Shown here: piece by piece, positions 1,824 through 46,639 of the stretch
Numbering within the stretch: position 1 is the first letter of the stretch
Layout: every line of letters starts with the position of its first letter
IMG/VR virus record: IMGVR_UViG_3300031234_000003
Reading direction: 5' to 3' (one strand)
From: an uncultured virus (IMG/VR IMGVR_UViG_3300031234_000003)
Lineage: Duplodnaviria; Heunggongvirae; Uroviricota; Caudoviricetes
Length of the DNA stretch: 64,000 nt
The notes under the pieces: generated by a model
Database searches by the model: none
What the model saw: the letters and a program-made list of their open reading frames with translations, nothing else
What the model was told of the DNA's origin: nothing
Made by a program: the position numbers and the translations under genes

Positions 1824-2306
1824 ATGGGTCAATGGAAAAACTACGAATTCAAGGGTTGTCCAAGCTGTGGGGAGAAAGATTTAACCAAGTTCGATACTCA
1901 TAAGAACCGTCGATCTGGTGTTCAGACTTACTGCAAAGCGTGCCAGCATCTCATCAAGAACCGTCCCGACCGCGTTCGCAAGTACCTCGTTCTCAACAAG
2001 CACCATATAACTCCTGAACAGTATGCGGCTCGGATGGCGGATCAAGCGGGCGTCTGTGCTATCTGTCGGCAAGCTCCATCCAGAAGGTATCTGGGCATCG
2101 ACCATGACCATTCATGCTGTTCGGGTTATTGGTCTTGCGGGGAGTGCATTCGTGGCCTCCTCTGTAGCCGATGCAACACCATGTTGGGCATGGCGATGGA
2201 CAATCCCGAAACCCTCAGAGAGGCGGCGAGGTACATCGAAAACTACCTAGCTTCAAAAAATTTCGATAATCCTATCCAAAATTCGGAATTCCGTGGTATT
2301 ATATAG
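1824..2306 (+). CDS. Endonuclease VII-like (His-Me finger) nuclease, probably a free-standing homing endonuclease
   Basis: N-terminal CxxC...YCKAC zinc finger; CAIC...IDHDH...IRGLLCSRCNTMLG motif typical of the recombination endonuclease VII family. Confidence 0.85.
   Translation: MGQWKNYEFKGCPSCGEKDLTKFDTHKNRRSGVQTYCKACQHLIKNRPDRVRKYLVLNKHHITPEQYAARMADQAGVCAICRQAPSRRYLGIDHDHSCCSGYWSCGECIRGLLCSRCNTMLGMAMDNPETLREAARYIENYLASKNFDNPIQNSEFRGII
2271..2302 (+). promoter_or_regulatory. Promoter of tRNA operon 1 (CCTATC-N20-TATTAT)
   Basis: The same motif and 26-nt spacing recur upstream of tRNA operon 2 and several other genes. Confidence 0.65.
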
Positions 2307-2345
2307 AAGTTGGCTCACCGCAAGAAGGTGACCCGGACACACAAA

Positions 2346-2420
2346 ATGATCGCTATCAGCATATCATCGTTATCGTCTAGTAGCTCCTCACGGGGCGACG
2401 GCATCGGTGTGTGCTTGTAA
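2346..2420 (+). CDS. Putative attenuator leader peptide (24 aa, MIAISISSLSSSSSSRGDGIGVCL)
   Basis: GGA upstream of ATG; codons 5-15 are AGC ATA TCA TCG TTA TCG TCT AGT AGC TCC TCA; followed by a terminator just before the Ser/Leu/Ile tRNA cluster. Confidence 0.8.
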   Translation: MIAISISSLSSSSSSRGDGIGVCL

Positions 2421-2454
2421 GTATCTGAAAACAAGCAGATTAGATTCACCGAGC

Positions 2455-2487
2455 AGCCGCCAGAAATTGGGCGGCTTTTGTGTTTTT
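2455..2487 (+). terminator. Intrinsic terminator (attenuator) upstream of tRNA operon 1
   Basis: AGCCGCC/GGCGGCT stem followed by TTTGTGTTTTT. Confidence 0.8.
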
Positions 2488-2500
2488 GGACATAAAGTAC

Positions 2501-2593
2501 GGAAGCGTGGCGTAACGGTATCGCAGCAGGTTGCTACCCTGTCCTCCCGAGTTTACCTCGGGAGTCCGAGTTCGAATCTCGGCGCTTCCGCCA
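2501..2593 (+). tRNA. tRNA-Ser(GCT)
   Basis: Cloverleaf, long variable arm, TTCGAAT T-loop, encoded CCA. Confidence 0.93.
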
Positions 2594-2594
2594 T

Positions 2595-2686
2595 GGAGAG
2601 TTGGGCGAGTGGTTTATGCCGCACGCTTGGAAAGCGTGTATCCCGCGCAAGCGGGATCAGAGGTTCGAATCCTCTACTCTCCGCCA
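2595..2686 (+). tRNA. tRNA-Ser(GGA)
   Basis: Cloverleaf, CACGC-TTGGAAA-GCGTG anticodon arm, long variable arm, CCA. Confidence 0.95.
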
Positions 2687-2705
2687 AATTTGAGTATTAA
2701 ATCGC

Positions 2706-3233
2706 ATGGATACTAATGCGAATTGTAAGAAAGCCGAGCAACTTGGAATGCCGTTCGGCACAGCGAGTAACCGCCTCAAGCAACGCCTGTTTTTCGGACT
2801 GCTGGTAAAGCTAGGCGACAACGTTTGTTTCAAATGCGGCAAACTGATCGAGAAGGCCAGCGAGCTTTCCATTGAGCACAAGAAGGATTGGCTCGACGTT
2901 GATCCGCAGCTTTTCTGGGCGGAAGACAACATTGCGTACTCGCACCGTAAGTGCAACAAGGCGGCTCGAAGGACGCCAAAGACTGGCAGGCATGGAACAC
3001 ACGGCCTGTATACTCTGGGTTGTCGTTGTAAGCCGTGCACAGACGCTCACGTTGCTTATAACAACGAATGGCGTTGGCAAAAGGGATTGCGTAAGAAAAA
3101 GTTTGGTAGGGTTGGCACATTGGCAAGTCCGACTGTCTCGAAAACAGTTATGCCTACGGGCATTGGGAGTTCAACTCTCCCTCCTACCGCCAGTTCGGTG
3201 AGCTTGGTACATGGGCAAGTCCGACCGTCTTGA
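2706..3233 (+). CDS. HNH-like nuclease inserted in the tRNA cluster
   Basis: CFKCG...SIEH...DNIAYSHRKCN motif; C-terminal HGT..YTLGCRCKPC; the frame runs into two tRNA-Ser genes. Confidence 0.7.
   Translation: MDTNANCKKAEQLGMPFGTASNRLKQRLFFGLLVKLGDNVCFKCGKLIEKASELSIEHKKDWLDVDPQLFWAEDNIAYSHRKCNKAARRTPKTGRHGTHGLYTLGCRCKPCTDAHVAYNNEWRWQKGLRKKKFGRVGTLASPTVSKTVMPTGIGSSTLPPTASSVSLVHGQVRPS
3105..3192 (+). tRNA. tRNA-Ser(CGA)
   Basis: ACTGT-CTCGAAA-ACAGT anticodon arm, long variable arm, CCA. Confidence 0.9.
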
Positions 3234-3290
3234 AAACGGCTATGCTTCAGAGATGGGGCATTGGCAGTTCAACTCTGCCGCTCACCGCCA
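3197..3290 (+). tRNA. tRNA-Ser(TGA)
   Basis: CCGT-CTTGAAA-ACGG anticodon arm, long variable arm, CCA. Confidence 0.9.
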
Positions 3291-3689
3291 GATTTGACTC
3301 ACGTGCCTAATGTGTGCCGATGTTTGGCCTCGTGACCCGCAAGGGATATGAGAAGCAGAAGATCAAATATTGCAGTATCATAAGGGTATGAAGCCTTACG
3401 AACCATGCGTCGAAGACGCCACAGCACATATCCATGTTGATTGGGAGACACACGAGAGCACGGGGAAGTTTGTTCCGTACTCGAAGATATTTTGCAGTGT
3501 GTGTCCGCCGTCAACAGCAGCGGAGAGCGAAGAGGAGTACCGCAAGTACGCGGCATACGAGAAGCGAGAAGCTCTGAGGTACGCCACACGGCGACCGAGC
3601 AAGTCGCTTCGGTTGCGGTTGTATCGTCACCGCATCCTGATTATCAGCGGACTTTTGCTGGTAGCCTACTTCGTGATTCATTGGATTTT

Positions 3690-3767
3690 GCCCGGGTGAT
3701 GCAACTGGCAGACATTTCCCACTTAAAACGGGAATTTTTGGGAGTTCGAGTCTCCTCCCGGGCACCA
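3690..3767 (+). tRNA. tRNA-Leu(TAA), short variable region
   Basis: GCCCGGG/CCCGGGC acceptor, CTTAAAA loop, TTCGAGT T-loop, ACCA. Confidence 0.85.
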
Positions 3768-3771
3768 GTTT

Positions 3772-3865
3772 AGAGGGTAGCATTGGTGTGCGGGTGGGCC
3801 TTATAAACCTGCAATCGCGGCTGATTACCGTACTCGGACGGGTTCGATTCCCGTACCCTCTACCA
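3772..3865 (+). tRNA. tRNA-Ile(TAT), atypical with long variable arm
   Basis: AGAGGGT/ACCCTCT acceptor, CTTATAA loop, TTCGATT T-loop, ACCA. Confidence 0.75.
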
Positions 3866-3896
3866 CTTTTCCCCCGCCACGTGGTATTATCCTATA

Positions 3897-4253
3897 ATGA
3901 TTGGTGAAATAAAAGTGCCGAAGTGGTTCATGGCGTTGTGGAAGCACTACGTGGGGCTCGATCCCTACCGCTGCTACCTGACCGATGAACAGCCCAAGAT
4001 CGTCGGGCCGAGCAAAGTAATCCGCGTCACGATGACGGTGGACATCGAAGTGCCGCATCGGTTCATCACCAAGAATGCCAACCTCGGCATCGCCCGCTCG
4101 TGCATCATGGAAGAGTTCAAAACCGAGGAGACCGCCCGCATCCAGACGTGGCACATCGTGAAAGCTGAGGATGTGGCATTGGCACAGCCGTCACGCCGGG
4201 GCTGTAAGACTTGCGGAAAGCCTTGGCCTGACAAAGATTACCAGCAGGTATGA
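3897..4253 (+). CDS. hypothetical protein
   Basis: ORF downstream of a -10-like TATAAT, in the co-oriented gene run. Confidence 0.6.
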   Translation: MIGEIKVPKWFMALWKHYVGLDPYRCYLTDEQPKIVGPSKVIRVTMTVDIEVPHRFITKNANLGIARSCIMEEFKTEETARIQTWHIVKAEDVALAQPSRRGCKTCGKPWPDKDYQQV

Positions 4254-4279
4254 TATACTGATCGTGGATGGAGAAGTAA

Positions 4280-4858
4280 ATGGACCCGAGCGCAGAATGG
4301 CTTGAAAAATACGGAAGGTTTTGGGGGAACGTCACGGACGAGCCGAAGAAACCATATCAGTTGACCACTCGGGAGTTGTACAACGCCCACATGGATCAGT
4401 ACACGGACGACACCGCTGTCCTGAGCATGACGAAGACCGACCACCCTAGCTACCAGTACATCAAGAATCAGCTTGGGATGCGGGCAATCCCCTACCTGCT
4501 GGAAGACATTCAAGCACAACACCCAGACGGTTCGTTCGACCACAACAGCTACCACAGCTTTTGGGGAGCGTGCAGTTTGTTCCGCACAATCCTCTACGAA
4601 AACGGGATTCCGGGTCCCGAGATTCCCGAGCCCTATCGCGGCAGGTTAGAGTACATCCGCGAAATATATGTGGATTGGGGCGTCCAAGAAAAGTTCCTGA
4701 AAGACAACCACGTGCCATCTATCCCGCTAAGGCTGGATCAGGTGCATCGGTTGGTTCCAAATCGTTTCTTCGGTCTCCGCAATTACGTGTGGAGATTGAC
4801 CACCCTCCCGAACCGTCACCGCATGAAGCATTCGTGGGACTTTTGGAGGGCAATATGA
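4280..4858 (+). CDS. hypothetical protein
   Basis: 192-aa ORF with GGAG RBS. Confidence 0.7.
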   Translation: MDPSAEWLEKYGRFWGNVTDEPKKPYQLTTRELYNAHMDQYTDDTAVLSMTKTDHPSYQYIKNQLGMRAIPYLLEDIQAQHPDGSFDHNSYHSFWGACSLFRTILYENGIPGPEIPEPYRGRLEYIREIYVDWGVQEKFLKDNHVPSIPLRLDQVHRLVPNRFFGLRNYVWRLTTLPNRHRMKHSWDFWRAI

Positions 4859-6021
4859 GGAGTTTCAATGGTAAAAGCCCAAGTAGCACGCAAGCCGCAG
4901 GACAGAGTGATGCGGTTGCTCAACGAACTTCGGGAGCACCCGAATGAGGAAAGTATCCGCAGGATACTGAATGCTTCGGAAGACGCCCGCCACGGCCGAG
5001 TGGAATATTTTGGTCTGGACAAGGCAGTGAAACGGATTCTGAACCGAGAGTTGACCGAACGCGAGAAGACTCTCGTCAAGAGGTTGTCATGAGCTACGAA
5101 AGCGGCTTTGAAAAAACCATCCGCAGGATCATAACGACAGGCGTGTTTATCGTCGTCGGCGTCCTGTTGTACTACGGCATTCGAGCCTCGGCCCACTGGT
5201 TCGGCGGGATTCAACTCAACCTGCCCAATCTCAGCAACCACGATTTCGAATGGTTGGTCATCGCCCTTCTTGCGGTCATTTGCTTGAACGGCGGCGGAAG
5301 CTGCAACTGCAAGTGCGGCAAGTGAAACGCCTTTGGCAATGATGGGTAGGGGGAATTGGCAATGATCGATTTTCTGTTTTTTCTCGTGATGCTGTTCGTA
5401 GCAGGATTCATCACTGGTGTTGGGGCTTTGATCCATCGAGAATCCGAATCGTACCGCAACTTCATGCACAACCACCCAGTCCTCGGCTGGACGGCATCGT
5501 TCTTCGTGGGCGGGCTGGTGTGGCTGTTTGCAACGTTCACCATAATCTATGCAGTGCTGATGGTGTTGGCCGTTTTATTCCACGCCAGCGTCCCAATTGA
5601 ATAAGGAGCCTCATGGCTAAGAAAGAAGACAACACTCGGAATCACACAGGCTTTGCCGCGTGGCAGAAGCGGAAGGCTGAAATCAACTCGGGCATCGAGT
5701 ACAAGAATGCCCAAAGCATGTACCGCCGTGCGGCTCTCACCGCCCGGGCAGAAGAGGGTCGGCTGACCGACAAGAATTACGTCGAGATGGCGACGGTCGG
5801 GCTCCAGTTAAAGCGTTCATGAGCGACGAACAGAAGCCCCAGATGGATACCAGCATCATCCGCGAGATGATGGCTCACTGGATTCCGTTCCCCGACGCCG
5901 CATACTGGAAGAAGTTCGGCATCGAACCGAATGCGGACGGCACCATCGACACGCCGGGTGGATTCCGTATCCCCACTCGTGAGATGTGCGAGGTTGCCGA
6001 CCTCGAAAAGTTAGCCAAGTT

Positions 6022-6324
6022 GTGACCCAAGTTGTACATGTCCGCAAATTTCCTTTCGTCCAATTTGCACCTAATTGCGTCTACATCGGACGCGACTACC
6101 TTGAGTTCAAAGATGAGGGCTGGGGAAATCCTTTCCATGTCGGCCCTGATGGAAATCGCAAAGAAGTTTTGAGGAAATACCGAGGGTGGATTGTGAACCA
6201 GCCGCAACTTCTCGCTCGGCTGCCCGAGTTAAAGGACAAAATTTTAGGTTGCTGGTGCAAGCCTCTCTCCTGCCACGGCGACGTACTTGTTGAATTACTG
6301 CACGAATACGGAATCCTCTCATAG
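6022..6324 (+). CDS. DUF4326-like protein
   Basis: YIGR...WGNPF...LGCWCKPLSCHGDVL signature; GTG start overlaps the upstream stop. Confidence 0.85.
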   Translation: MTQVVHVRKFPFVQFAPNCVYIGRDYLEFKDEGWGNPFHVGPDGNRKEVLRKYRGWIVNQPQLLARLPELKDKILGCWCKPLSCHGDVLVELLHEYGILS

Positions 6325-6336
6325 AGGGAGGGTTCA

Positions 6337-6531
6337 ATGCCTATCATTCGTATTGACGATCCCAAGGTCTACATTGGGATGTCCATGGAAGCAGCCCGCC
6401 GCGACATCACGGATCACGGGTACGATGTCCGCGTGATTCAATTCCAAACCCCTTACAAACCTGACTACGACCCACTCCGCGTTATCCTGATTATCCAAAA
6501 AGATCAGATCATCGACGCCATGGTCGGCTAA
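6337..6531 (+). CDS. small protein resembling peptidase-inhibitor I78/I13 fold
   Basis: YIGMSMEAA...VRVI...DYDPLRV...I...G pattern; GGAGG RBS. Confidence 0.4.
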   Translation: MPIIRIDDPKVYIGMSMEAARRDITDHGYDVRVIQFQTPYKPDYDPLRVILIIQKDQIIDAMVG

Positions 6532-6593
6532 CCCGTTGATTCCACAACGTTAAAACCTAGCCAAAACCCGAACTTTTACGGTAGAATGGGGGT

Positions 6594-7301
6594 ATGGCGA
6601 AGAAAACCTCATCCACCGTCCACGAATTCGATATGGAGCTTACTCCATTTTCGAGTATGCAACTCTACGGCGACAAAAAGTACAGCCTCCAGAACATGGT
6701 CCTCAAGATGACGGACTATCCCGCCAAGATGGACTCGGCGGTCGATCAACATTTCGACATCTACGTGGACCGTGCGTACACGCAATGGCACGCGGCCTCA
6801 CGCGACATCCCGAGCACACAGACGGGCGATGCGTGGTGGGCTGGTGTCTCCGACAGGGAGTTCCTGCGATTCGCTGGCAAGCTGTTCGCCATCCTCAACA
6901 CGCCTCGCACGATTACGGGCGACGAGATCGTTCAAAACGCCTATCGTTACTCCAACAAATACCTCAGCCGCCTCGCAGAGCTTCAAGGCTCGATGGCTCT
7001 GGCTGGTCTGGACGCTGACGGCTACGGCAACCTCGATCTTCGCATCAAGACTCGTGAGTGGGCCGAAGTTGCTGCCGCCGAAGAGATTGAACCCTTACCG
7101 CTCACTGGCGCTCTGATGGTTCGCATGACGAACGTGAGCAGCGGTTATCCGTGCCCCGTTCTCATGGGCGTCATTCAGAAATCCAAGTTCGCTCGCTACA
7201 GCGGGAACTCCGCTCCGTTCATCAAACAGTTCCGTTCGCACATGGACATATTCGGCAATCCTCGCCTCTACGCCAACGAGTACGAGGAGGATCGGTACTG
7301 A
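6594..7301 (+). CDS. hypothetical protein
   Basis: 235-aa ORF directly after a CCTAGC-N20-TAGAAT promoter motif. Confidence 0.7.
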   Translation: MAKKTSSTVHEFDMELTPFSSMQLYGDKKYSLQNMVLKMTDYPAKMDSAVDQHFDIYVDRAYTQWHAASRDIPSTQTGDAWWAGVSDREFLRFAGKLFAILNTPRTITGDEIVQNAYRYSNKYLSRLAELQGSMALAGLDADGYGNLDLRIKTREWAEVAAAEEIEPLPLTGALMVRMTNVSSGYPCPVLMGVIQKSKFARYSGNSAPFIKQFRSHMDIFGNPRLYANEYEEDRY

Positions 7302-8499
7302 TGGGACCGAAGCCAACAGCGAAGCAATTGGAGACGCTCACTAAGCTGGCTCTTCCCGGAGTCACCGTCCATGAATGGTCGGAGACTCGCGGTGGGCTGC
7401 ACGCCTACATTGGTCATGAACCACGGTACTCTGGGCAAGTTCGTTTCGTGGGACTGGTTGAAGCCCGTAGGCGATCCCGAGATGGCGTGGCGAAACATGG
7501 AGTACGCGATCACCGAGGACGGTCTCGAAGTCATCAAGAAGGGTGAGATACGAAAATGAGCGGAAACGTATACAGTTTTGAAACCTACGTGCGGACGGCC
7601 AAGTGGGGCACCTTCGGCAAGGGCGGCGTTGAACACTGCGCGGGCCGCTGTCCTGAGCACCAGCTTCGTTTCAAAAAGCTGATTGATTGCGACAGCGATC
7701 ACCTGCAAATGATCTTGAAAAACCAGCGGCAGGTTGAGGAGAGCCCATTCCTCAAACGCATCATCCATTACATCTTGATTGGACGTGGCGAGACGCCTGA
7801 GCCGTTCAGTGCGAAAGCCGAAGCCAAGCTGTTCAAACAGATGGCAGCCGCCGAACGTAAGCACCCCATTGTGGTACAATCGGGGTCGGGGGGAACCAAT
7901 GCGACTCGTTAAGAAGGGAAAAGACCCGAAGACCGAAATCTGGTCGGCGACCTGCACGAACTGCAAGTCAAAGTTCGAAGCTCAACGTGGCGAACTCAAC
8001 GTGACCGACGACCAACGCGACGGGCCGTTTGCTCACGCAACCTGCACCGAGTGCAAGCAGGGTATGGTTTTCTACCCGTCGAGGGGATAATGGCAAAGAA
8101 TCACGGCGTCACAAAACGTAACCGTCGTTCAGTATCGAAGTCGCGGCCCAAGCAGGCAGCCACACGCATCGCCCAAACTATGGCGACTCTCAAGCAACTT
8201 GAGAAGCGGGATGCGGCTCTGGAGCAGATACACAAACTCCACCCTGCGGATAGTATCAGGGCAGCCTTCCTACGTCGGGCAGACATCAGCGTCCTCCCAC
8301 CAGAAGAGCAGGAACGCCGCCTCGCGGAGCACATGATTCATGTCGAAAAGTTTTTCACGCAGATTGCGGGTATGGACCCGATCTTTGTGAACGTGCCACG
8401 GACGGCTGAGATCATGGTCGAAGAGGGTATCGACACCACGGACATTCCAGAAGTGACTGACTGGACTGGTGCGGTGCGAAGCAAGTTCTATCGAGGCAA

Positions 8500-9099
8500 A
8501 TGAAACAATACCCACATATCGAAGGCCCCGCTAAGGCTCCTCTGGGAGTCCCGTGCATCGCTTTCTACAAGTACGATGGAAGCAACCTGCGCTGGGAGTG
8601 GTCGCCGAAGCAGGGCTGGCACAAGTTCGGCACCCGGCACGAGATGTTCAATGCGACTCACCCGCTGTTCGGGCAGGCGATTCCAATCTTCATGGACACG
8701 ATGGCGGACGAGATTGTGAAGCGATGCAAGAAGGTTGAACGTGGCGTCCAACGCATCAACGTGTTCACCGAGTTCCTCGGGCCGAGCAGCTTCGCGGGCT
8801 TGCATGACGAGAAGGAACCGAAAGAGCTTCGGCTGTTCGATGTCAACCTGTTCAAGCGAGGCATCATGTCACCCAAGCTGTTCGTCGATACGTTCGGCGA
8901 CCTGCCTTACGCGGCTCAGGTGGTCTACCGAGGCAATCTGAACCGCCAGTTCATCGAAGATGTTCGCATGGGGCTGTACCCGGTGAATGAGGGCGTAATC
9001 GCTAAGGGCAACGACTTCATGGTGAAGATCAAGACGTATGCGTACTTGAAGAAGTTGAACGAAAAATTCGGTGCGGACTATCGCAACTATTGGGAATAA
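8500..9099 (+). CDS. RNA-ligase-like nucleotidyltransferase (adenylation domain only)
   Basis: Covalent nucleotidyltransferase motifs KYDGSN, FTEFLG, LRLFDV, EGVIAK, MVKIK. Confidence 0.75.
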   Translation: MKQYPHIEGPAKAPLGVPCIAFYKYDGSNLRWEWSPKQGWHKFGTRHEMFNATHPLFGQAIPIFMDTMADEIVKRCKKVERGVQRINVFTEFLGPSSFAGLHDEKEPKELRLFDVNLFKRGIMSPKLFVDTFGDLPYAAQVVYRGNLNRQFIEDVRMGLYPVNEGVIAKGNDFMVKIKTYAYLKKLNEKFGADYRNYWE

Positions 9100-9108
9100 G
9101 GAGGCAGT

Positions 9109-9462
9109 ATGAAATCATGCATTATCACAGGGGTGTTTTGCATTCTGACGATCATCTTCCTGTTCGCCAGTCTGGGTCACGCTCAGTCTATCGCTGGCGG
9201 CGGGGGAGGCATTCAGGCTCCTACGGGTCCGACGTACTCGGTGCCCGATCACCCGATGCACGCCGACCAAGGCACTTCACGGCCTGAGGTTAGCTTGCTC
9301 GGTAATAACAACATCACGTATGCTCAGGGTGAGCGCCCCATGTGGGAGTTTGGTCCTAGCCTCCCGCCGCCGACGCCACTTGGCGACGTGGCACGTGTGT
9401 ACCGCAAGGAACACGCGACGGCCGAGAAGGCTGTTCGTGTCTGGAATCAGCAAGGACAGTAG
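9109..9462 (+). CDS. hypothetical exported protein
   Basis: GAGG RBS; N-terminal signal peptide ending ..GHA|Q. Confidence 0.65.
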   Translation: MKSCIITGVFCILTIIFLFASLGHAQSIAGGGGGIQAPTGPTYSVPDHPMHADQGTSRPEVSLLGNNNITYAQGERPMWEFGPSLPPPTPLGDVARVYRKEHATAEKAVRVWNQQGQ

Positions 9463-12665: not shown

Positions 12666-13118
12666 ATGGAAAACGAAGAACGTGGTGGTGTGGATTGGCC
12701 CGCAAAAGCAACCGACGAGTGCTTTCCCGATGTTCCCAAGGGAGGCGAAACCAGAAAGAAACGCGAGGGTTTTGAGTTTGTCTACGCCGACATCGTAGGT
12801 AGTTGGTACATGTCGCCAGAGACGTTCGTGCGGATGGACGGCAGCGAGCAGAAGGACATCATGCCGGGGCATTTCGGCTTCCTGATTCGCTGGGGCGTCA
12901 AGAATTATGGCTTCGGTGAATATTCGGTGAAGTTCGGCACCGATGGCAAGATCGAAGTGCAGGACGAGTTCAGCGGTCCTGAGTTCTCAAAGGCGTTGTT
13001 CGCCTATCTGGGGCAGAAGGTCGCGGAAATCGGCGAGCACGACCACCAGCGAGAAGAGAAAAAGAAACAGGAAGAAGCCGCGAGGATCAACGAAGCGGGG
13101 GAGCCTGATGTTTCCTAA
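12666..13118 (+). CDS. hypothetical protein
   Basis: 150-aa ORF with GAGGT RBS. Confidence 0.65.
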   Translation: MENEERGGVDWPAKATDECFPDVPKGGETRKKREGFEFVYADIVGSWYMSPETFVRMDGSEQKDIMPGHFGFLIRWGVKNYGFGEYSVKFGTDGKIEVQDEFSGPEFSKALFAYLGQKVAEIGEHDHQREEKKKQEEAARINEAGEPDVS

Positions 13119-14463: not shown

Positions 14464-14554
14464 TGCCTCAAGTACCATGTGTGGGTGAGGACTGCTGGAT
14501 GTGCCTGATGCAAGCCGAGATTGAGGGCTTGACGGCACCATATTGGGGCGCGTG

Positions 14555-16355: not shown

Positions 16356-17089
16356 TGCCGACCAACATCATCATTGCAGAGGAAGAAGGCTACCTCTGGC
16401 ACCATCCCCTCGCCAAACGAATCTACGCCATCCTCAACGACATCCGGTATACCCAGCGGGACGTCACGTGGATGATCTCGGGCAATATCGCTTGGTACGC
16501 GGGCGGCGGACTCATGGATGAATACCGCCCCATCAGCTTTCGCATCATGGTCAGCAACCTTAAAGACGTGCAGAGCGGCGAGTCGATCAGTTTGTTCATG
16601 CCGCCAATCGTAGTTCACCCCGAGATGAAGGACGAGTGGATTCTCCAGACGGCGTACCGCGCTATCCGAAGCTTCGAACTACACGAAATGGACGAGCATT
16701 TCTTCTACAAGGACGAGAAGATTTTCGACCCGCACAGAGGCGAAACGCAGACAATCCATGGGTAGGGTGACCAAAGCGAACGGGCAATGGCTGTTCGGCT
16801 ACTGCTGGCGATACGCCCGAGCCCTCGAAGACCTCACAGGATGGCCTGTGCGCTTCGTTAACGGTCTGAGCCGCACTGTGTACACGGAATACGTCCACTG
16901 CGTTGTCCAGAAACCTGATGGCACCCTGTTCGACGCCAGCGGTCCTGTGAGCATCAAACAGCTTGAGAGGCGATATCTGCTCAAAGGAATTTACTTGACC
17001 AAACCGGGTCCCGAACACTACCATGAATACGACGCTACCGAGGCAATGGTAGCCGCCCGAAAACAATTGCAAAAATAAATTTTGATTTT

Positions 17090-17121
17090 CCTATCGAAAA
17101 CTCTGACTTTCATGGTAGTAT
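17090..17121 (+). promoter_or_regulatory. Promoter of tRNA operon 2 (CCTATC-N20-TAGTAT)
   Basis: Matches the operon-1 promoter, including the downstream ATAGAAG. Confidence 0.65.
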
Positions 17122-17139
17122 ATAGAAGCTGAGGAACAC

Positions 17140-17271
17140 ATGACCTTTAATAAAGCCAACTCGAACGTCGCCGCGACCCCAGAACATCAGGGCGTGGGCG
17201 GTAAGCGCCAGCGGAATAATCGCTGGTCGGTCGGTGGGCAGGTCTGCTCAGTTGGAGTCGTAGGAATCTAA
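17140..17271 (+). CDS. Putative attenuator leader peptide (43 aa, MTFNKANSNVAATPEHQGVGGKRQRNNRWSVGGQVCSVGVVGI)
   Basis: GAGGA RBS; cluster of His/Gln/Lys/Arg/Asn/Trp codons; followed by a terminator before the Trp/His/Arg/Asn/Gln/Lys tRNA cluster. Confidence 0.78.
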   Translation: MTFNKANSNVAATPEHQGVGGKRQRNNRWSVGGQVCSVGVVGI

Positions 17272-17300
17272 AGCAAGAGACTCCAAATCGAGATCAAACA

Positions 17301-17333: not shown

Positions 17334-17347
17334 AGTGGGTTTTCTGT

Positions 17348-17435
17348 AGGGGTGAAGGGCAACCCGGTTCGGCCCAGCGGTCTCCAAAACCGCCGACTTC
17401 GGTCATTGTGGGTTCAAATCCCACCACCCCTGCCA
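17348..17435 (+). tRNA. tRNA-Trp(CCA), atypical with long variable arm
   Basis: AGGGGTG/CACCCCT acceptor, GCGGT-CTCCAAA-ACCGC, GAC-TTCG-GTC variable hairpin, GCCA. Confidence 0.8.
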
Positions 17436-17473
17436 AATTTAAGTCGCATCGTGAATCAACCGATGTGCAGATT

Positions 17474-17553
17474 GTGGCGATGGCAACTCTGGGTATTGTT
17501 GCACTGGTCTGTGAAACCAGTTCTGGTGGGTTCGACTCCCACTCGTCACCCCA
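17474..17553 (+). tRNA. tRNA-His(GTG), no encoded G-1
   Basis: CTGGT-CTGTGAA-ACCAG arm, C73, CCA. Confidence 0.85.
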
Positions 17554-17563
17554 AGTTTGATGT

Positions 17564-17640
17564 GGTGGGCATAGTTCAGCGGTCAGAACGTCGGCCTGTG
17601 ACGCCGAATGCCGTGGGTTCGAATCCCACTGTCCACCCCA
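17564..17640 (+). tRNA. tRNA-His(GTG)
   Basis: Canonical cloverleaf with G-1:C73, CCA. Confidence 0.93.
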
Positions 17641-17928
17641 AGTTTTTAAGGCGAGAGAGCACGACAGAGATGATTGAAGGAGGGACCAAGATATTGAACA
17701 GCGGGGACGGAAGCTCGCCCAGCGTGCAGCGGAGAACAGGATTAGTCGCCCCCTCGGGGCAAGATTGGTCCGATGTGCACATCGAGCTTCCGTCTTCAAA
17801 GGGTAAAACTTTAGCGACGGTTGTTGGCAGCCCACTGGATCATGAGTGCCCAGCGTGTGAAGCGCCGAAAGGCGTGGCTTGCAGGTCAGCAACAACGCAT
17901 TACGACCGCGTGAGGTTGATTAGAATTT

Positions 17929-18005
17929 AGTCCCGTAACTCAGCGGAATAGAGTGCCAGCCTCCGAAGCTGGAAGTCGTGGGTTCGAATCCCACCGGGAC
18001 TACCA
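17929..18005 (+). tRNA. tRNA-Arg(CCG)
   Basis: CCAGC-CTCCGAA-GCTGG arm, CCA. Confidence 0.93.
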
Positions 18006-18052
18006 GTTACGAAGGCGTAATCCAGACTTCGTAGTGCTATAATAGAGGCACT

Positions 18053-18460
18053 ATGAACTGTCCCAAATGCGGGAAAGAAAAAGAGGTCGCGTCGGCCTCG
18101 TACTGTCGGGAATGCCAACGAGAGTTTACTCGCGGCGATTACGTTAAGAACAAAGCGGTGTACATCGCTAAAGCAAAGAGGAATGGCGAACGTTACAAGC
18201 GAGAGATGTACGAATGGCTGATGGCGTATTTCAGGAATCATCCATGCGTAGATTGCGGGGAACCTGATCCCGTAGTTCTGGATTTCGATCATCGTGATGG
18301 TGTCAAGAAAGACGATATAATTTCACGATTGATCTGTTGTAAGAAATACCACGCTGCAAAGCTGGAAATTGAAAAATGCGATGTGCGATGTAGTAACTGT
18401 CATCGGCGTCGAACAGCGAAACAGCAAGGTTGGTACTGGTTAAAATTTTTGCACGTGTAG
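18053..18460 (+). CDS. HNH endonuclease within the tRNA cluster
   Basis: CVDCG...LDFDHRD...KCDVRCSNCHRRRT; N-terminal zinc finger. Confidence 0.85.
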   Translation: MNCPKCGKEKEVASASYCRECQREFTRGDYVKNKAVYIAKAKRNGERYKREMYEWLMAYFRNHPCVDCGEPDPVVLDFDHRDGVKKDDIISRLICCKKYHAAKLEIEKCDVRCSNCHRRRTAKQQGWYWLKFLHV

Positions 18461-18527
18461 CTCAGCGGAACAGAGCATCGGTCTACGAAACCGGGGGTCG
18501 CAGGTTCGAATCCTGCCATGTGCACCA
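18451..18527 (+). tRNA. tRNA-Arg(ACG)
   Basis: Canonical cloverleaf, CTACGAA loop, CCA. Confidence 0.93.
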
Positions 18528-18546
18528 AGTTTGGAACGTAGAGGTC

Positions 18547-18610
18547 GGCTGTAGCTCAATTGGCAGAGCACCTCATTGCGAGGAGATGCGGGTTCGAATC
18601 CCGCCAGCCA
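18547..18610 (+). ncRNA. tRNA-like element with truncated anticodon arm
   Basis: Intact D arm (TAGCTCAATTGGCAGAGC) and T arm (GCGGGTTCGAATCCCGC); anticodon arm CCTC-ATTGC-GAGG. Confidence 0.65.
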
Positions 18611-18694
18611 TACGCCGAAACGTTCTAAGGGCAGAGGATAGACAGCGACGGCTGGAACGACGTGAAATCCCTCAAGCCCTCCGGATTTTAGATT

Positions 18695-18771
18695 GGTCCT
18701 ATCGGCAACTGGATAGTCACCTGCGCTTCGAACGCGGATCAGTGTAGGTTCGAATCCTACTAGGATCACCA
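18695..18771 (+). tRNA. tRNA-Arg(TCG)
   Basis: CTGCG-CTTCGAA-CGCGG arm, CCA. Confidence 0.88.
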
Positions 18772-18777
18772 AATTTT

Positions 18778-18864
18778 GCGGGCGTGTCGGCAAATGGACG
18801 CCACGGGCGCTACGAACGCCCAGCCCTTCGGGGAATGCAGGTTCGAGTCCTGTCACTTGCTCCA
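18778..18864 (+). tRNA. tRNA-Arg(ACG), atypical with long variable arm
   Basis: GGGCG-CTACGAA-CGCCC arm, CCC-TTCG-GGG variable hairpin, TCCA. Confidence 0.8.
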
Positions 18865-19028
18865 GTTTATGGAAGAACAGAAACAAAACGAAGGGGTCGA
18901 TAGTCGGAGCAATGCCCTCGGCTGGCATGAACGCAAGAAGCAGGAGCAAGCCAAGGAAGGCTCGACGGTTCACGCAGTGGGTTGTCCCTGCGGATTCTGT
19001 AAGGCAGGTTTTACGAAAGCATAAGTTT

Positions 19029-19114
19029 TGGGATGTAGAGCGTAATGGTAGCGTGCACGACTGTTAATCGTGTGGCGAAAGCCCTTGTAGGTTCGAGTCC
19101 TACCGTCCCAGCCA
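19029..19114 (+). tRNA. tRNA-Asn(GTT), atypical with long variable arm
   Basis: CACGA-CTGTTAA-TCGTG arm, GGC-GAAA-GCC variable hairpin, GCCA. Confidence 0.8.
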
Positions 19115-19277
19115 AATATGTTGACGAAAGAACTGATCGTCGAGTGGAACGCACGGTGTGAGCAACAGTGCCTCGACACAGCTTTCGAAGCGGCAGCCCG
19201 GGGAATGATCGACCTCTCCGAGGAGTTCATGAGATGGGCTCAGGAATGCCGCGAGAAGATTGAGTTTGTTGAAAGAT

Positions 19278-19363
19278 TGGGAAGTAGGAAAATTGGCAAC
19301 CCCAGTGGATTCTGAATCCACCGCCTTAGGGCACTGAAGGTTCGACTCCTTCCTTCCCAGCCA
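19278..19363 (+). tRNA. tRNA-Gln(CTG), atypical with long variable arm
   Basis: GTGGA-TTCTGAA-TCCAC arm, GCC-TTAG-GGC variable hairpin, U1:A72, GCCA. Confidence 0.82.
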
Positions 19364-19374
19364 ATTTTAGATGC

Positions 19375-19450
19375 GGGAGCATAAGCTTAACGGCCAAACT
19401 GCTCGTCTCCAAAACGAGACTTCTAGGTTCGAATCCTAGTGCTCCTGCCA
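19375..19450 (+). tRNA. tRNA-Trp(CCA)
   Basis: CTCGT-CTCCAAA-ACGAG arm, GCCA. Confidence 0.92.
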
Positions 19451-19516
19451 CGAAACGAAAGACGTATACGAGCACGAAACGCAGGCTCAAGTACGAAGCG
19501 AAAGGTTATTAGACAT

Positions 19517-19591
<75 letters not shown>

Positions 19592-19597
19592 TAGTAA

Positions 19598-19677
19598 GCT
19601 GTTGCGAAACGGGAGGCGGGTTCGTCTCGCCCACGCGCTAGTGGGTAATGTCCGTGAGAGTCGGGCGGCGACAGCCA
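19598..19677 (+). ncRNA. highly divergent tRNA-like RNA
   Basis: CTGTTGC/GCGACAG closing stem plus CCA; three internal hairpins including GTCCG-TGAGAGT-CGGGC. Confidence 0.5.
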
Positions 19678-19890
19678 ATTAAGTCTCAACGTGTGGTTTG
19701 TTCGGCGGTGGAGGGTCACCCGTAAAACGGTGCTCCTCATGGAGCGGGCAAGGGATGTCGGCATCGAACAGGGTTTCGACAGCGACTCGGTAAGTGCAGC
19801 CGCATTCGAGGACAGTGAAGAAACACTCCTCGTCGCCCTCGCGGGCAGTGTAGGCTCCAGCTTGCTTCATACTAATGAATACTGAAGTTT

Positions 19891-19966
19891 GGGCGGTTGG
19901 CAGAACTGGATATGCACTCGGCTCTTACCCGAGACTACGAGGGTTCGATTCCCTTGCCGCTCACCA
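19891..19966 (+). tRNA. tRNA-Lys(CTT)
   Basis: CTCGG-CTCTTAC-CCGAG arm, ACCA. Confidence 0.9.
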
Positions 19967-19992
19967 AGTTTTGGAGTATTGTAAGTAGAGAT

Positions 19993-20068
<76 letters not shown>

Positions 20069-20813
20069 AGATTCGAGGTAATTTATGCTGCAAACAAATC
20101 GAGTTCGAGTGCATCAAGGCGGACGGCACGGAGAAAAAGGCACCGTTATTCGAGGACCTTATCGCCACGATCCGCCAACAACCCGATATGGAAACCCTGT
20201 TCGGAATCCGAGGGGGTTTAACCCTGACACGCTCTGGTACACAGTATTGATGGATGAACTAAAGAACGGTAGAGCGGAGACGGAAGAGTTTTGCGACTAC
20301 CAGTTGACCGTGGTGCCGCAGATGCAGTGCGTGCAGTGCAAAAGGATGTTTGAGGATGGCGAAACCCAGACCGCTCCTATGGAGCAATGCCCGAAAGGTG
20401 GGGGTGGAAACCACGCGCTGGTACACCCAGACAATATCGCGACTACTGTGGAAGCATAAAATGCGGCAAGCGTGCCCCCGATGTCTCGGCGATGACGCGG
20501 CAGAGCGTGAAGGTCGGAACTTTGACCCCCTCTACGGCACCGTCGAAATCTACTGCACGTACTGTGGGTCCTTCGTGGACATGATCTGGCGCTGGCAGAC
20601 GGGTGACGCCGAGTGGCAGAAGTTCAGGGATCAAGCGAAGGGCGTAAGGGTATGAAGAAATGCGATGTGTGCGGGTTTGAGGGTCGCTGGCTGACTCACA
20701 TGTGCCCCGGCCCCGCCGATAACGGCAAGATTGATCCAGCGGATGGACGGATGAGGGTGTATCTGTGGTATCCGACGCAGATCATAGACATCCAAGAGAT
20801 TAAGGAACGCAGA

Positions 20814-20890
20814 TTCGGGTTAGCTCAAGCTTAGGCAGAGCAGCCGCGCAAGCGGAAGACTGGCGGGTTCGACTCCCGCCCCCTAAACCA
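20814..20890 (+). ncRNA. tRNA-like element with GCAA tetraloop in place of the anticodon loop
   Basis: D arm TAGCTCAAGCTTAGGCAGAGC, CCGC-GCAA-GCGG, T arm GCGGGTTCGACTCCCGC, ACCA; acceptor stem imperfect. Confidence 0.6.
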
Positions 20891-20926
20891 TCTTTTAGAC
20901 TGATAAGAAGGGAGACAACGTGATTT

Positions 20927-21481
20927 ATGGGAATGGCAGACACATTAGTTCTTGACCTCTCGAACAGGCCCATCGGGTTTGTGAGTTGGCAGCGTGCCGT
21001 CAAGATGTACTGGGAAGACCGTGCCGAAATCGTGAAGGAAGACCCGCACGTTTTCCTGCACTCCCCGTCCATCGAGATGAACATGCCTCGTGTCATCAAG
21101 GCGAAGAACTACGTCGTCAAGCGGCTGAAGTTGAGCGTGCCGTTCTCTCGTCGTAACATCGCCCTGCGTGACAACAGCGAGTGTCAGTATTGTGGCAAGT
21201 TCTTGCACAGTCACGAGTACACTCTGGATCACGTGATCCCGCGTTCGAAGGGTGGATTGTCCACGTGGCTGAACTTGGTCTTGGCTTGCATCAAGTGCAA
21301 CAAGATGAAGAACAACCACACGTTGGCCGAGTCTGGCATGACGCTCCGTAAGAAGCCCATGGAGCCGAAGGCAACCGACCCGCGTTACAACTTCAAGCTG
21401 CACATCAAGAAGCTCCGTCCCGAGTGGAAGGAGTGGGCTGATGGGGGCTGGCTCTACTGGAACGTGGAGTTAGACAAGTAG
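20927..21481 (+). CDS. HNH endonuclease (McrA-like)
   Basis: FSRRNIALRDNSECQYCG...TLDHVIPRSKGG..TWLNLVLACIKCN. Confidence 0.92.
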   Translation: MGMADTLVLDLSNRPIGFVSWQRAVKMYWEDRAEIVKEDPHVFLHSPSIEMNMPRVIKAKNYVVKRLKLSVPFSRRNIALRDNSECQYCGKFLHSHEYTLDHVIPRSKGGLSTWLNLVLACIKCNKMKNNHTLAESGMTLRKKPMEPKATDPRYNFKLHIKKLRPEWKEWADGGWLYWNVELDK

Positions 21482-22226
21482 GATGACACCGAACGGTAAC
21501 ATTTACGAATGTCGCCGTTCGGTGACACCCAAATATTCCCGAACGGGAACATTCCGGGAATGAGATTGGATGCACAATAGGTTGCCCGACAGGGAACATT
21601 TCGTGCACAGGATATAACTATGGCGAGGGAGATTGGCGGCGTCGAGTTCGGATTACGCAGTCTTCCCCTCATGGGTGTAGGTCTGGTGCTGGCAATTAGC
21701 ACTCAGATGACCGACACGAAGAAGCTCTGGGGTATGCTGGCTCTGGAGATCGTTTTAGGAATCGCCGCAATTGGGGCGTGGATTGTGAAGGCATAATGGC
21801 AGGCGTACCGCATATCCGAGGCTGCTGGTTTTGCTTCCTGAATAAGCTGATGGCGACCCTTGGATTCGCCGCGATTGGGATTGTTTGCGTCTGTGCCATG
21901 GTCTGGGATGCGGCCCATCATCACTATCTGACGGCGGCAAAGGATTTGGTGGGTTACTTCATAGCTCTCGTGGCTATCAGCGTGGTGCCGAAGTTGATAG
22001 ATGGCTGGTCGGGGCTTTTGGACAGGGTACTGCCTGATGGTAAATGATCTTCAGGCACTATCGAAAGCATTAACATGGGGTGCCGCTGCCTACGATAGGG
22101 CATCTGAGAAAGAATTAGCCGACCTCATCCTGAAGGATCGGGCTCGGATCGAAGAGGAATTGAATCGGGACGGACAGACAATCGTCACGTTTCGCGGTTG
22201 CCCGTATCGGGTAACCAGAAAAGTTT

Positions 22227-22304
22227 GACTCGGTAGCTCAGTTGGACTAGAGCGTCTCTCTCCTAAAGAGAAGGTCGTGAGTTCGAATCTCACTCGGGTC
22301 ACCA
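22227..22304 (+). tRNA. tRNA-Arg(CCT)
   Basis: TCTCT-CTCCTAA-AGAGA arm, ACCA. Confidence 0.93.
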
Positions 22305-22608
22305 TATTTTATGACGTTCAAAGCGAAGTGGATGCAAAAGTTGAGCCGCTGGCTGTGCGAGCATGACATGCACGCTTGGACATACACGAGGTTGAAGGCT
22401 TTATGGCCTGAGTGCGGCGGGGTTACAGCATGTGCGTTTGACCGTTGCTGTGATGCTTGTGGTAAGATGGAGTCGGGAGCGGACTGGTTCTAGGAGGATC
22501 ACATGCTCGACGTAAAGTTTGACGGCGTGCTCGACGAATTTCTTGCTCAATTGACTGGCGAAGAGGGTATTAGATTACAGATCGCCATGTCGGTCACGGA
22601 GAACAAAG

Positions 22609-22833
22609 ATGCCAGTGCTGACGGTAGAGTTCAACGACAGGATGAACGACATCCTGCAAGAGTTAGCAGATAAGAAGGGTTGCACCAAGGTGGACATCCT
22701 TCGTCGGGCTGTGGCGCTGTACAAGTACATCACCAACGAGCTTCACTGCCGCCGCAAGGATGATTTGGTGCCGAAGCGGTTGGTGATTCGCAACAGTGAA
22801 GATGTGATTCTGAAAGAAGTCATGGTGCCGTAG
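22609..22833 (+). CDS. ribbon-helix-helix (CopG-like) DNA-binding protein
   Basis: LTVEFNDRMNDILQELADKKGCTKVDILRRAVALY pattern. Confidence 0.7.
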   Translation: MPVLTVEFNDRMNDILQELADKKGCTKVDILRRAVALYKYITNELHCRRKDDLVPKRLVIRNSEDVILKEVMVP

Positions 22834-22992
22834 TGGAGTTGAAAGAGTTTCTCATCATAGCGTTGCCGTTCCCGAACTCGACTTTAGAGTCGGAGTACAC
22901 GGAGTTCGCTGTTGATGATGAAACGGCCCTGAAACAGTTTGAAGCTCGGTTCCCGCTATGGCGGGTCAAGAGCGTGACCGAGAAGTAAAGAT

Positions 22993-23066
22993 TGGCACAT
23001 CGTTCAACGGCAGGACCCTTGCCTCTGGAGCAAGGTATCGGGGTTCGAATCCCTGTGTGCCAGCCA
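22993..23066 (+). tRNA. tRNA-Gln(CTG)
   Basis: Canonical cloverleaf, U1:A72, GCCA. Confidence 0.93.
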
Positions 23067-23442
23067 AGTTTTAGAAAGTAGTAGTTGTGAATCGAACGTT
23101 AAAAAACGTTCTACTTGTCGGGCTCGGGGTAGTCATTCCCGGTGCGTCGTTGATATGGCTGTACAAATTCGCCAGCTATGACGCAGAAAAAGAAGATTTT
23201 AGACAGTACGTCGAACAGCGGTTCGACAGGATGAAAGCGGACGAACAGCAATGGTTACACTAAAGATCACACGTACCGCGATGTACCTCGCATATCTGTT
23301 GCAGGTCATCCACGAAGCAGAATAACTATGACTACACTGATTCAAAACTTGTTACCAGCCTTCGCCGCAGGAGCCCTCCTGCTCATTTGCGAAGCTACGC
23401 CGATCCTCTTCACCAGACGAAAACGTTAACCACAATTCGTGT

Positions 23443-23523
23443 GGGCGTGTAGCGGACGGGCCTTCTAAACCCGATCACTGTAATGGACTGAAAATGTGAG
23501 TTCGACCCTCACCACGCCCCCCA
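23443..23523 (+). tRNA. atypical tRNA-Arg(TCT) lacking a normal D arm
   Basis: GGGCGTG/CACGCCC acceptor, CGGG-CCTTCTAAA-CCCG arm, long variable region, T arm, CCA. Confidence 0.65.
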
Positions 23524-23538
23524 AACTTCTTTTCAAAT

Positions 23539-23615
23539 GGGAGCGTGGCAGACTGGGTAATGCACTCGCCTTTTAAGCGATGACCATGTGGGATCGTACC
23601 CCACCGCTCTCACCA
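23539..23615 (+). tRNA. tRNA-Lys(TTT)
   Basis: TCGC-CTTTTAA-GCGA arm, ACCA. Confidence 0.85.
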
Positions 23616-23621
23616 AACTTT

Positions 23622-23705
23622 CCCAGTATGGCAGAACGGTTATGCACCCGACTAATCGGAGACTCGCAAGGGTCAACGGGGGTTCGACTCCCTCTGCTGG
23701 GACCA
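23622..23705 (+). ncRNA. anticodon-less tRNA-like RNA (4-nt loop CTAA)
   Basis: Complete acceptor, D, long variable and T arms plus ACCA; anticodon stem CCGA/TCGG closes only CTAA. Confidence 0.7.
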
Positions 23706-46619: not shown

Positions 46620-46639
46620 AACATGGTATTATATAGGGT

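Follow-up and report, generated by a model that had tools for sequence, protein, structure and literature searches.

Codon-matched leaders upstream of the tRNA operons of an uncultured phage: candidates for ribosome-mediated transcription attenuation

The 64,000-nucleotide stretch of DNA analysed here (the window; IMG/VR record IMGVR_UViG_3300031234_000003) has a G+C content of 55% and comes from a large uncultured phage of peat, the genes of which are mostly small and lie on the plus strand. Its transfer RNA (tRNA) operons A and B are each preceded by a promoter, a short open reading frame (ORF) and an intrinsic terminator (Table 1). For operon A, a reading made from the letters alone (the sequence-only reading) had claimed that these parts form a leader-peptide attenuator with the architecture of trp, his and thr, and that its control codons match the tRNA genes that follow.

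Leader A and the tRNA genes downstream

The leader ORF of operon A, which the sequence-only reading had described as having 24 codons, is present as described, and its control codons read as proposed. They form a run of 11 codons in a row, all of which are readable by the six downstream tRNAs. The run uses 8 distinct codons (the six Ser codons, ATA and TTA) and is thus not a simple repeat. The codon set of the six operon A anticodons was defined according to standard wobble as AGC, AGT, TCN, TTA, TTG and ATA, and the six frames of the window were searched for runs of these codons. We observed 260 runs of length 3, 41 of length 4, 4 of length 5 and one each of lengths 6 and 11; the sole run of 11 is that of leader A, and the next longest in the window is the run of 6. 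Altogether, 12 of 23 codons of leader A belong to the set, in comparison to a background of 7.0% measured in 12,631 codons of phage ORFs (binomial probability 8e-9). Moreover, ATA and TTA are the only non-Ser codons of the run. Both are infrequent in the phage (3.4 and 3.6 per thousand), and operon A has just two non-Ser tRNAs, to which exactly these codons belong; the probability that both would fall among TTA, TTG and ATA by chance is 4e-4. Chance is excluded as the source of this codon run.

The tRNA content claimed for operon A was recovered in large part. ARAGORN detected the Ser genes with the anticodons GCT, GGA, CGA and TGA and the gene with the anticodon TAA, whereas the proposed Ile(TAT) gene is weakly supported. 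This gene (3772-3865) was missed by ARAGORN even at 80% thresholds, and its only model match was to Rfam tRNA-Sec (31.6 bits, E 7e-4), below the family cut-off of 47. Its fold comprises an acceptor stem of 7 bp, a T arm and a variable-arm hairpin; CCA is encoded, and UAU occupies the centre of the anticodon loop.

Four tRNA-like genes of the window are aberrant (3690-3767, 3772-3865, 23443-23523 and 23622-23705). In the 'Leu' tRNA(UAA), the variable arm is short and the anticodon loop is closed by an A-C mismatch; a class-II-like gene carries UAU in the loop CCUUAUAAACC; another gene resembling the latter (CCUUCUAAACC) would yield the anticodon UCU; and the fourth has an 8-nt anticodon loop, which was read as 'tcgg' by ARAGORN under relaxed settings. 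The amino-acid identity of these four genes is not deducible from the anticodon alone.

The intrinsic terminator that had been proposed between the leader ORF and the first tRNA was also called by the terminator scan, both in its stem and in its T tract. The stem (2455-2476) has 7 pairs, 6 of them G-C, and its tail is TTTTGTGTTTT. Terminator-like sites as such are not in excess in the leader A region, where 3 were found and 3.1 were expected from shuffles. The spacing between the T tract and the first tRNA is 13 nt in operon A and 12 nt in operon B, which leaves no room for another promoter; transcription can therefore reach the first tRNAs only through the terminator.

The promoter proposed for operon A (2271-2302) is at the stated position. 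A search with the generic sigma-70 consensus found nothing at leader A and called none of the promoters of the tRNA leaders. However, the window contains 17 copies of the extended -10 motif TGGTAnnAT where 3.3 are expected, 16 of the 17 being on the plus strand, and the promoter block of operon A (~50 nt around 2270-2309) is repeated upstream of leader B at 17089-17128; over 17070-17128, 42 of ~55 positions are identical. The same block also precedes tRNA leaders in metagenome and viral contigs. Transcription of operon A would start near 2309-2311.

Table 1. Features of the two tRNA operons and their leaders in the window
Feature	Position	Strand	Details
Promoter of tRNA operon A	2251..2309	+	upstream element TCCTATCCAAAA (2270-2281); extended -10 TGGTATTAT (2294-2302)
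5' hairpin of leader A	2315..2331	+	TCACC / GGTGA, present in the minimum-free-energy fold
Leader ORF A	2346..2420	+	ATG 2346, TAA 2420, 24 codons, encodes MIAISISSLSSSSSSRGDGIGVCL
Control codons of leader A	2358..2390	+	AGC ATA TCA TCG TTA TCG TCT AGT AGC TCC TCA
Segment 1 of the putative switch, leader A	2373-2387	+	inside the control codons
Segment 2 and central hairpin, leader A	2392..2454	+	segment 2 (2392-2402); hairpin (2404-2452) with the stop codon; predicted antiterminator together with 2455-2461
Intrinsic terminator of leader A	2455..2487	+	AGCCGCC / GGCGGCT, then T tract
tRNA operon A	2501..3865	+	six tRNA or tRNA-like genes, ORFs interspersed
Ser(GCT)	2501-2593	+	ARAGORN
Ser(GGA)	2595-2686	+	ARAGORN
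HNH ORF in operon A	2706-~3100	+	
Ser(CGA)	3105-3192	+	ARAGORN
Ser(TGA)	3197-3290	+	ARAGORN
ORF in operon A	3370-3699	+	
tRNA(UAA), short variable arm	3690-3767	+	ARAGORN, anticodon TAA
tRNA-like gene with UAU	3772-3865	+	fold; weak model match
Promoter of tRNA operon B	17070..17128	+	TCCTATCGAAAA (17089-17100); TGGTAGTAT (17113-17121)
Leader ORF B	17140..17271	+	43 codons, MTFNKANSNVAATPEHQGVGGKRQRNNRWSVGGQVCSVGVVGI; GAGGA 4 nt (ACAC) before ATG
Control run of leader B	17203..17226	+	AAG CGC CAG CGG AAT AAT CGC TGG; folds into its own hairpin, -12.5 kcal/mol
Predicted antiterminator hairpin of leader B	17237-17308	+	holds the stop codon; overlaps the terminator
Terminator of leader B	17300-17323, T tract to 17335	+	terminator scan
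tRNA operon B	17348..23705	+	Trp, His x2, Arg CCG/ACG/TCG/ACG/CCT, Gln TTG/CTG x2, Asn x2, Lys CTT x2/TTT
Further genes of operon B	within 17348..23705	+	two aberrant tRNA-like genes; HNH and small ORFs interspersed

Leaders of other tRNA clusters

If operon A is controlled by an attenuator, other tRNA clusters should have leaders written in their own codons, and leader B fits this expectation. Operon B repeats the order of operon A, that is, the promoter block, an ORF, a terminator and then tRNA-Trp, and its leader ORF is preceded by a Shine-Dalgarno sequence. Leader B reads CAT CAG before an unbroken control run of 8 codons, which is one of the two longest runs of cluster B codons in the six frames of the window, and all six amino acids of the cluster are represented.

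Related loci were sought by scanning metagenome contigs for the promoter pattern, and 15 loci were returned. Eight of them (L003, L005, L006, L007, L010, L014, L015 and L016) were chance matches of the pattern, with no tRNA and no further similarity. The first promoter pattern also gave chance matches in viral contigs (L001, no tRNA) and in genome contigs (four loci, 0/4 with tRNAs). When viral contigs were queried with two flanking proteins for related loci, no relative was found, and INPHARED contained no close relative; similarity to its 14 matching records is confined to tRNAs and to the endonuclease VII gene (74-80% identity). A relaxed promoter pattern returned 6 loci from IMG/VR, of which 4 correspond to a third promoter of the window (48074-48106) and 2 are the leader loci L025 and L026. 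The related IMG/VR records are 26-186 kb long, with a CheckV completeness of 8-58%; records G001, G002, G005 and G006 include the third promoter only and not the tRNA region.

One metagenome locus (L009) has the same leader A, followed by different Ser tRNA genes. Its 5' hairpin is kept through a C-G to U-A double change, and the 3 substitutions in its terminator are all in the loop and none in the stem. As the adjacent endonuclease VII gene is identical too, the identity of the leader ORF is uninformative on selection. Between the window and this locus, the tRNA genes are swapped just after the terminator, the endonuclease gene and the leader ORF being unchanged.

Three further loci (L004, L012 and L013) resemble the window in the promoter only (86-90% over ~51 nt). 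They carry a Pro-type leader (leader C), MATKIPTMFRPCTPTVRGGMDTL, which starts with MNTMRPTPMFRPCTP in L012. This leader contains one each of CCA, CCG and CCT and stands before five tRNA-Pro genes with the anticodons UGG, CGG and GGG. L013 has an HNH-like insertion between the leader and the first tRNA-Pro. The two IMG/VR loci carry Leu/Tyr-type leaders (leader D), MTRLTLSSLRLYSYLSGFSGGVFEGLN and MTRVTLSLSLLYTLLSGVGGGVFEG, in which five different Leu codons are accompanied by TAT/TAC and which precede two Tyr(GTA) and the Leu(GAG, CAG, CAA, TAG) tRNAs. The record of L025 has a second leader 6 kb further on (L032 1540-1710, record G003), which is of the Pro type, contains four Pro codons and keeps both the ORF and the helix between the control codons (segment 1) and segment 2 (the 1:2 helix).

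The number of codons that belong to the set of the leader's own cluster was 12/23 in leader A, 15/42 in leader B, 3/22 and 4/23 in the C leaders and 7/26 and 7/24 in the D leaders. When the four leader types were scored against the four clusters, each type was best on its own cluster, and the off-diagonal values were 0-4 with the exception of L025. Among the 24 possible assignments of leaders to clusters, the true one gave the highest total. The peptides of the four leader types have nothing in common but a Gly-rich part, which is imposed by the stem.

Leaders A and D can be aligned along their whole length and are therefore paralogues. At homologous positions, leader A reads ATA TCA TCG TTA and leader D reads CTA TCA TCG TTG; further on, AGT ... 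TCC in A corresponds to TAT ... TAC in D. These differences imply that point changes have exchanged the codons of the tRNAs with UAU and UAA (A) for those of the Leu tRNAs with UAG and CAA (D), and Ser codons for Tyr codons. We regard this co-variation with the downstream anticodons as the strongest single argument that the codons are selected to match the cargo. The sequence-only reading had suggested looking in relatives for leaders that co-vary with tRNA content; Pro and Leu/Tyr types were found, and the A/D codons track the anticodons.

Alternative folds and the proposed switch

In leader A, segment 2 (GGGGCGACGGC) can form a helix with the control codons of segment 1 (-10.7 kcal/mol). Alternatively, it serves as the foot of a 70-nt hairpin and pairs with the 5' arm of the terminator (-24.4 kcal/mol); the central hairpin alone has -14.9 and the terminator -13.4 kcal/mol. 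With a ribosome masked on codons 9-12, the nascent transcript has the antiterminator as its minimum-free-energy (MFE) structure. Both pairings that the sequence-only reading had assigned to the antiterminator reappeared in these predictions: that of 2412-2418 with 2431-2437 is in the MFE, and its extension forms between 2394-2397 and 2458-2461 with the ribosome masked on codons 9-12. Leader D is built in the same way, on a perfect GGCGG(C/U)/GCCGCC foot, and its antiterminator is likewise the MFE of the nascent transcript with the ribosome on the control codons.

For leader B, the antiterminator is predicted at -27.0 and the terminator at -15.0 kcal/mol. The former stays the MFE as long as the ribosome has not gone beyond codon 29, where the control run ends, and then collapses; a 1:2 helix was not found in the ribosome-mask folding of this leader. 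Leader C (L004) is the most trp-like, with energies of -27.0, -15.6 and -13.1 kcal/mol for the 1:2, 2:3 and 3:4 pairings. Its 2:3 pairing has a probability of about 0.72-0.76 from the last Pro codon on, compared to 0.17 with the ribosome at the stop codon.

The stems are also kept among relatives. Leaders A, B and D have canonical terminators, with a G+C-rich hairpin and a T tract between the ORF and the first tRNA, and in each of the leaders an in-frame ATG is retained and the stop codon is located inside the switch. A U-A to C-G double change distinguishes the terminator stems of L025 and L026. RNAalifold, applied to the A/D alignment, found the terminator's 7 pairs invariant in 4/4 leaders and recovered the helix between the control codons and segment 2; 9 of 31 predicted pairs showed compensatory changes.

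Given this anatomy, its repetition before several clusters, the match between codons and anticodons, the co-variation of paralogues and the alternative folds obtained in silico, we consider it likely that the tRNA operons of this phage are controlled by ribosome-mediated transcription attenuation through codon-matched leaders. The trp/his/thr-like architecture that had been claimed for leader A gains support from the leader types B, C and D and from the A/D co-variation. We infer that the leaders are translated, that the switch is kinetic and that regulation has the direction described here. Each tRNA operon would be transcribed from the dedicated promoter class into a leader with a short translated ORF and an intrinsic terminator. 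If the control codons are decoded fast, the ribosome would reach the stop codon and melt the antiterminator, because the stop codon lies inside that hairpin; the terminator would then form and only a short leader RNA would be made. When the matching charged tRNAs are scarce, decoding would be slow and the ribosome would stall on the control codons. In leaders A, C and D, the stall would open the helix of segment 1 with the G-rich segment 2, and the freed segment 2 would pair with the 5' arm of the terminator, so that RNA polymerase could read through and the tRNAs could be made. The new tRNAs would restore decoding and hence termination, which would close a negative feedback loop.

Several observations weigh against this reading, and they are considered here together with the alternatives that they favour. 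Full-length equilibrium folds of leader A kept the terminator (P 0.92-0.98) whatever codon was masked, and any switch must thus be kinetic; in trp, the 3:4 helix is likewise the most stable of the pairings. Masked folding, which the sequence-only reading had put forward as a check, was favourable for the nascent transcript but showed no switch in the full-length equilibrium folds. In truncated leader A transcripts, the 5' arm of the terminator also pairs elsewhere, e.g. with the 5' end of the transcript. The antiterminator of leader B forms without any ribosome, which means that the untranslated state would read through, unlike in trp. Among the Pro-type leaders, the terminator of L004 is non-canonical and was not called by the terminator scan, and L032 is without the long terminator hairpin of L004 and has no recognisable terminator. 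No codon-matched leader was found upstream of the Phe and Met tRNAs in relatives G003 and G004. Leader D of L025 has 8 codons of the Ser set and 7 of its own Tyr/Leu set, an exception that is explained by its paralogy with leader A. In addition, three of the metagenome loci (L002, L008 and L011) match the window at 100% identity and provide no independent evidence.

Four peat metatranscriptome runs were compared with positions 2000-20100 of the window. Contigs from these libraries indicate presence only, not transcript ends or levels, and stretches without contigs are not readable as unexpressed; pieces of 20-36 letters on tRNAs come from other organisms. DNA may occur in RNA libraries, which is another point of caution. 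In run X2, a 176-letter contig with a depth of 198.9 covers 2318-2456 and has adapter letters at both ends. It is a short discrete insert that includes the leader ORF and the central hairpin, and its depth is far above that of the other phage pieces of the run (4.6-15.8). The contig comes from a variant strain, with C2353T and one base missing at 2343, both outside the control codons and the stems. Its end at 2456 coincides with the foot of the terminator hairpin instead of the T tract, which also counts against attenuation. Another X2 contig (depth 4.6, 17209-17393) begins in leader B, spans the terminator and reaches into tRNA-Trp. Contigs from 4/4 runs cover the HNH ORF of operon A.

The end of the abundant leader A contig at 2456 would agree with an output other than termination: the leader ORF would be translated and would sense the same codons, but would act through Rho access, RNA decay or the folding or processing of the first tRNA. 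The equilibrium folds, which never remove terminator A, point in the same direction, as does L032, which has the ORF and the 1:2 helix without a terminator and in which the 5' acceptor strand of the first tRNA-Pro is a possible pairing partner for segment 2 (CCCCG). We consider this alternative unlikely, since leaders A, B and D place canonical hairpins and T tracts 12-13 nt before the first tRNA, the terminator stems are conserved while the loops vary, and each leader has an alternative pairing over the 5' arm.

The prediction of terminator A in all equilibrium states could also mean that the terminators are fixed, leaky dampers or insulators that keep tRNA transcription constant and low, and that the ORFs are untranslated by-products of G-rich and pyrimidine-rich stems. 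Consistent with this, no Shine-Dalgarno sequence was found before the ATG of leader A, where the stretch is A/C-rich; such sequences occur at 26/58 (~45%) of crude gene starts of the phage. In all leader peptides, the C-terminal half is Gly-rich as a consequence of the GGCGG stems, and the bulk composition alone is not significant for leader B (P 0.06) and leader C (3/22, P 0.10). The lack of a Shine-Dalgarno sequence and the composition of B and C speak against control by attenuation as well. However, a fixed damper leaves unexplained the run of 11 with its 8 codons being exactly those of the six tRNAs, the four leader types that match their own clusters and the paralogous codons that shift with the anticodons; and the ATG and the stop codon inside the switch are preserved in every leader. 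This explanation appears distinctly unlikely.

A further interpretation of the discrete and deep leader contig in the RNA library is that the leader transcripts are stable small RNAs or mRNAs of micro-proteins with a function of their own, e.g. on host translation. In favour of this interpretation, shuffled sequences fold somewhat less stably than the leaders (z -3.1 for leader A, -2.2 for leader B). We find this very improbable: the four peptide types are alike only in the part that the stem imposes, no Rfam family matches the leader, and the leaders are tied to tRNA expression because they lie directly against the first tRNA with no intervening promoter.

Thus, attenuation by codon-matched leaders remains the explanation that we prefer. 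We lean, by a small measure, towards the wider proposal that phage tRNA operons are under a modular and fast-evolving family of leader attenuators, which would sense decoding speed codon by codon, supply the tRNAs that are scarce, duplicate, and be retuned with their cargo by point mutations of the control codons (ATA to CTA, TTA to TTG, TCC to TAC).

Genomic surroundings and comparison with known systems

Homing-endonuclease ORFs are present in the window, as are proteins that match the RlaP RNA-repair, Ku-like, ligase-like and ClpX-like families. Around and inside the tRNA clusters lie endonuclease VII and HNH ORFs (1824-2306, 2706-3100, 18053-18460 and 20927-21481), and the endonuclease VII ORF terminates within promoter A. 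A third promoter of the tRNA-leader class (TCCTAGCTAAAA ... TGGTAGAAT) lies at 48074-48106 and drives an ordinary gene with a Shine-Dalgarno sequence (window 48074-48642), the product of which matches the RNA polymerase alpha C-terminal domain (Pfam PF03118, 24.7 bits, cut-off 23.8). This stretch is identical in four IMG/VR records (L021-L024). Extended -10 boxes were also observed 0-8 nt before ATG codons (3882-3899, 6580-6596, 16340-16357, 25253-25269, 34649-34658 and 46624-46642), which suggests that many messenger RNAs (mRNAs) of the phage are leaderless. On the minus strand, an open frame of at least 3883 codons (52297-63948) reaches to ~50 nt from the window end, and its start may therefore lie beyond the window.

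The window encodes a nucleotidyltransferase (13522-14463) with a match to the RlaP RNA-repair family (PF10127, 76.8 bits), as well as a ligase-like ORF (44323-45108) and a Ku-like ORF (34656-35687). The RlaP-family protein and the ligase-like ORF hint at RNA repair by the phage, possibly of cleaved tRNA. The trigger in this phage may be the cleavage of host tRNAs, in which case the leaders would be a sense-and-respond counter-defence; this link to anticodon nucleases is only suggested by the RlaP-family match, by the ligase-like gene and by the tRNA identities.

The purpose of phage tRNA genes has been debated for fifty years, with codon compensation and escape from tRNA-cleaving defences as the two explanations, and to our knowledge the control of these genes has hardly been addressed in that debate. 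If the proposed control is true, the phage gauges how fast each codon species is decoded and restricts tRNA synthesis to times of demand, and textbook attenuation is extended from the supply of amino acids to the supply of tRNAs. The leaders would offer natural, compact and retunable sensors of the availability of single tRNA species, and the Ser, Leu/Tyr, Pro and six-amino-acid leaders make up a ready-made comparative series. Our full-text literature search, which covered open literature with subscription journals outside its coverage, retrieved no description of leader-peptide control of tRNA genes.

T-box riboswitches, which are characterised by a stem I with a specifier loop and by a conserved T-box antiterminator sequence, bind uncharged tRNA directly and without a ribosome. 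As proposed for the phage leaders, tRNA status decides in them between terminator and antiterminator upstream of translation-related genes; unlike them, the phage leaders contain an in-frame ORF with many different codons. Rfam searches of 2200-2500 and 17100-17347 found no T-box or other cis-regulatory family at gathering thresholds (matches with E up to 10 were considered for 2200-4000 only). The lack of an Rfam match and the in-frame ORF led us to reject a direct tRNA-binding riboswitch.

The leaders trpL, hisL, pheL and leuL are enterobacterial leader-peptide transcription attenuators of amino-acid operons. Other attenuators are multivalent, such as thrL for Thr and Ile and ilvL for Ile, Leu and Val. 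As in thrL and ilvL, one phage leader would report on several amino acids through mixed control codons; the difference is that leader B would cover as many as six amino acids and leader A eight codon species, and that the set equals the tRNA content of the operon. With trpL, hisL, pheL and leuL (for pheL, see PMC3082878), the phage leaders share a short leader ORF, control codons in segment 1, a terminator before the first gene and, as predicted from the alternative folds, 1:2, 2:3 and 3:4 pairings that would exclude one another and a stop codon that would let the finishing ribosome block the antiterminator. In contrast to these four, the phage leaders are phage-encoded, their control codons appear to be chosen by anticodon, several paralogous leaders occur per genome under one promoter class, and leader B is without the 1:2 helix. 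Moreover, the regulated genes are tRNAs and homing-endonuclease ORFs instead of genes for biosynthesis or transport, and the phage system would thus work like the attenuator family without being a classical member of it.

The trn operon of Anabaena is a long accessory tRNA array that is induced under translational stress, according to PMC8421152 and PMC10272220, and it resembles our proposal in that accessory tRNAs stay off until translation is impaired. Its control is attributed to the repressor TrcR, and the words 'leader peptide', 'attenuat' and 'terminator' do not occur in the main texts of these two papers (PMC8421152, PMC10272220). Phage tRNAs have also been described as a counter-defence against tRNA-cleaving systems (PMC10264068, PMC11464382, PMC11555353); the accessible portions of these papers concern the roles of the tRNAs, and we noticed no leader-based gene control in them. 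As with these counter-defence tRNAs, the cleavage of host tRNAs would give the phage a reason for providing extra Lys, Arg, His, Asn, Gln, Ser or Leu tRNAs when they are needed.

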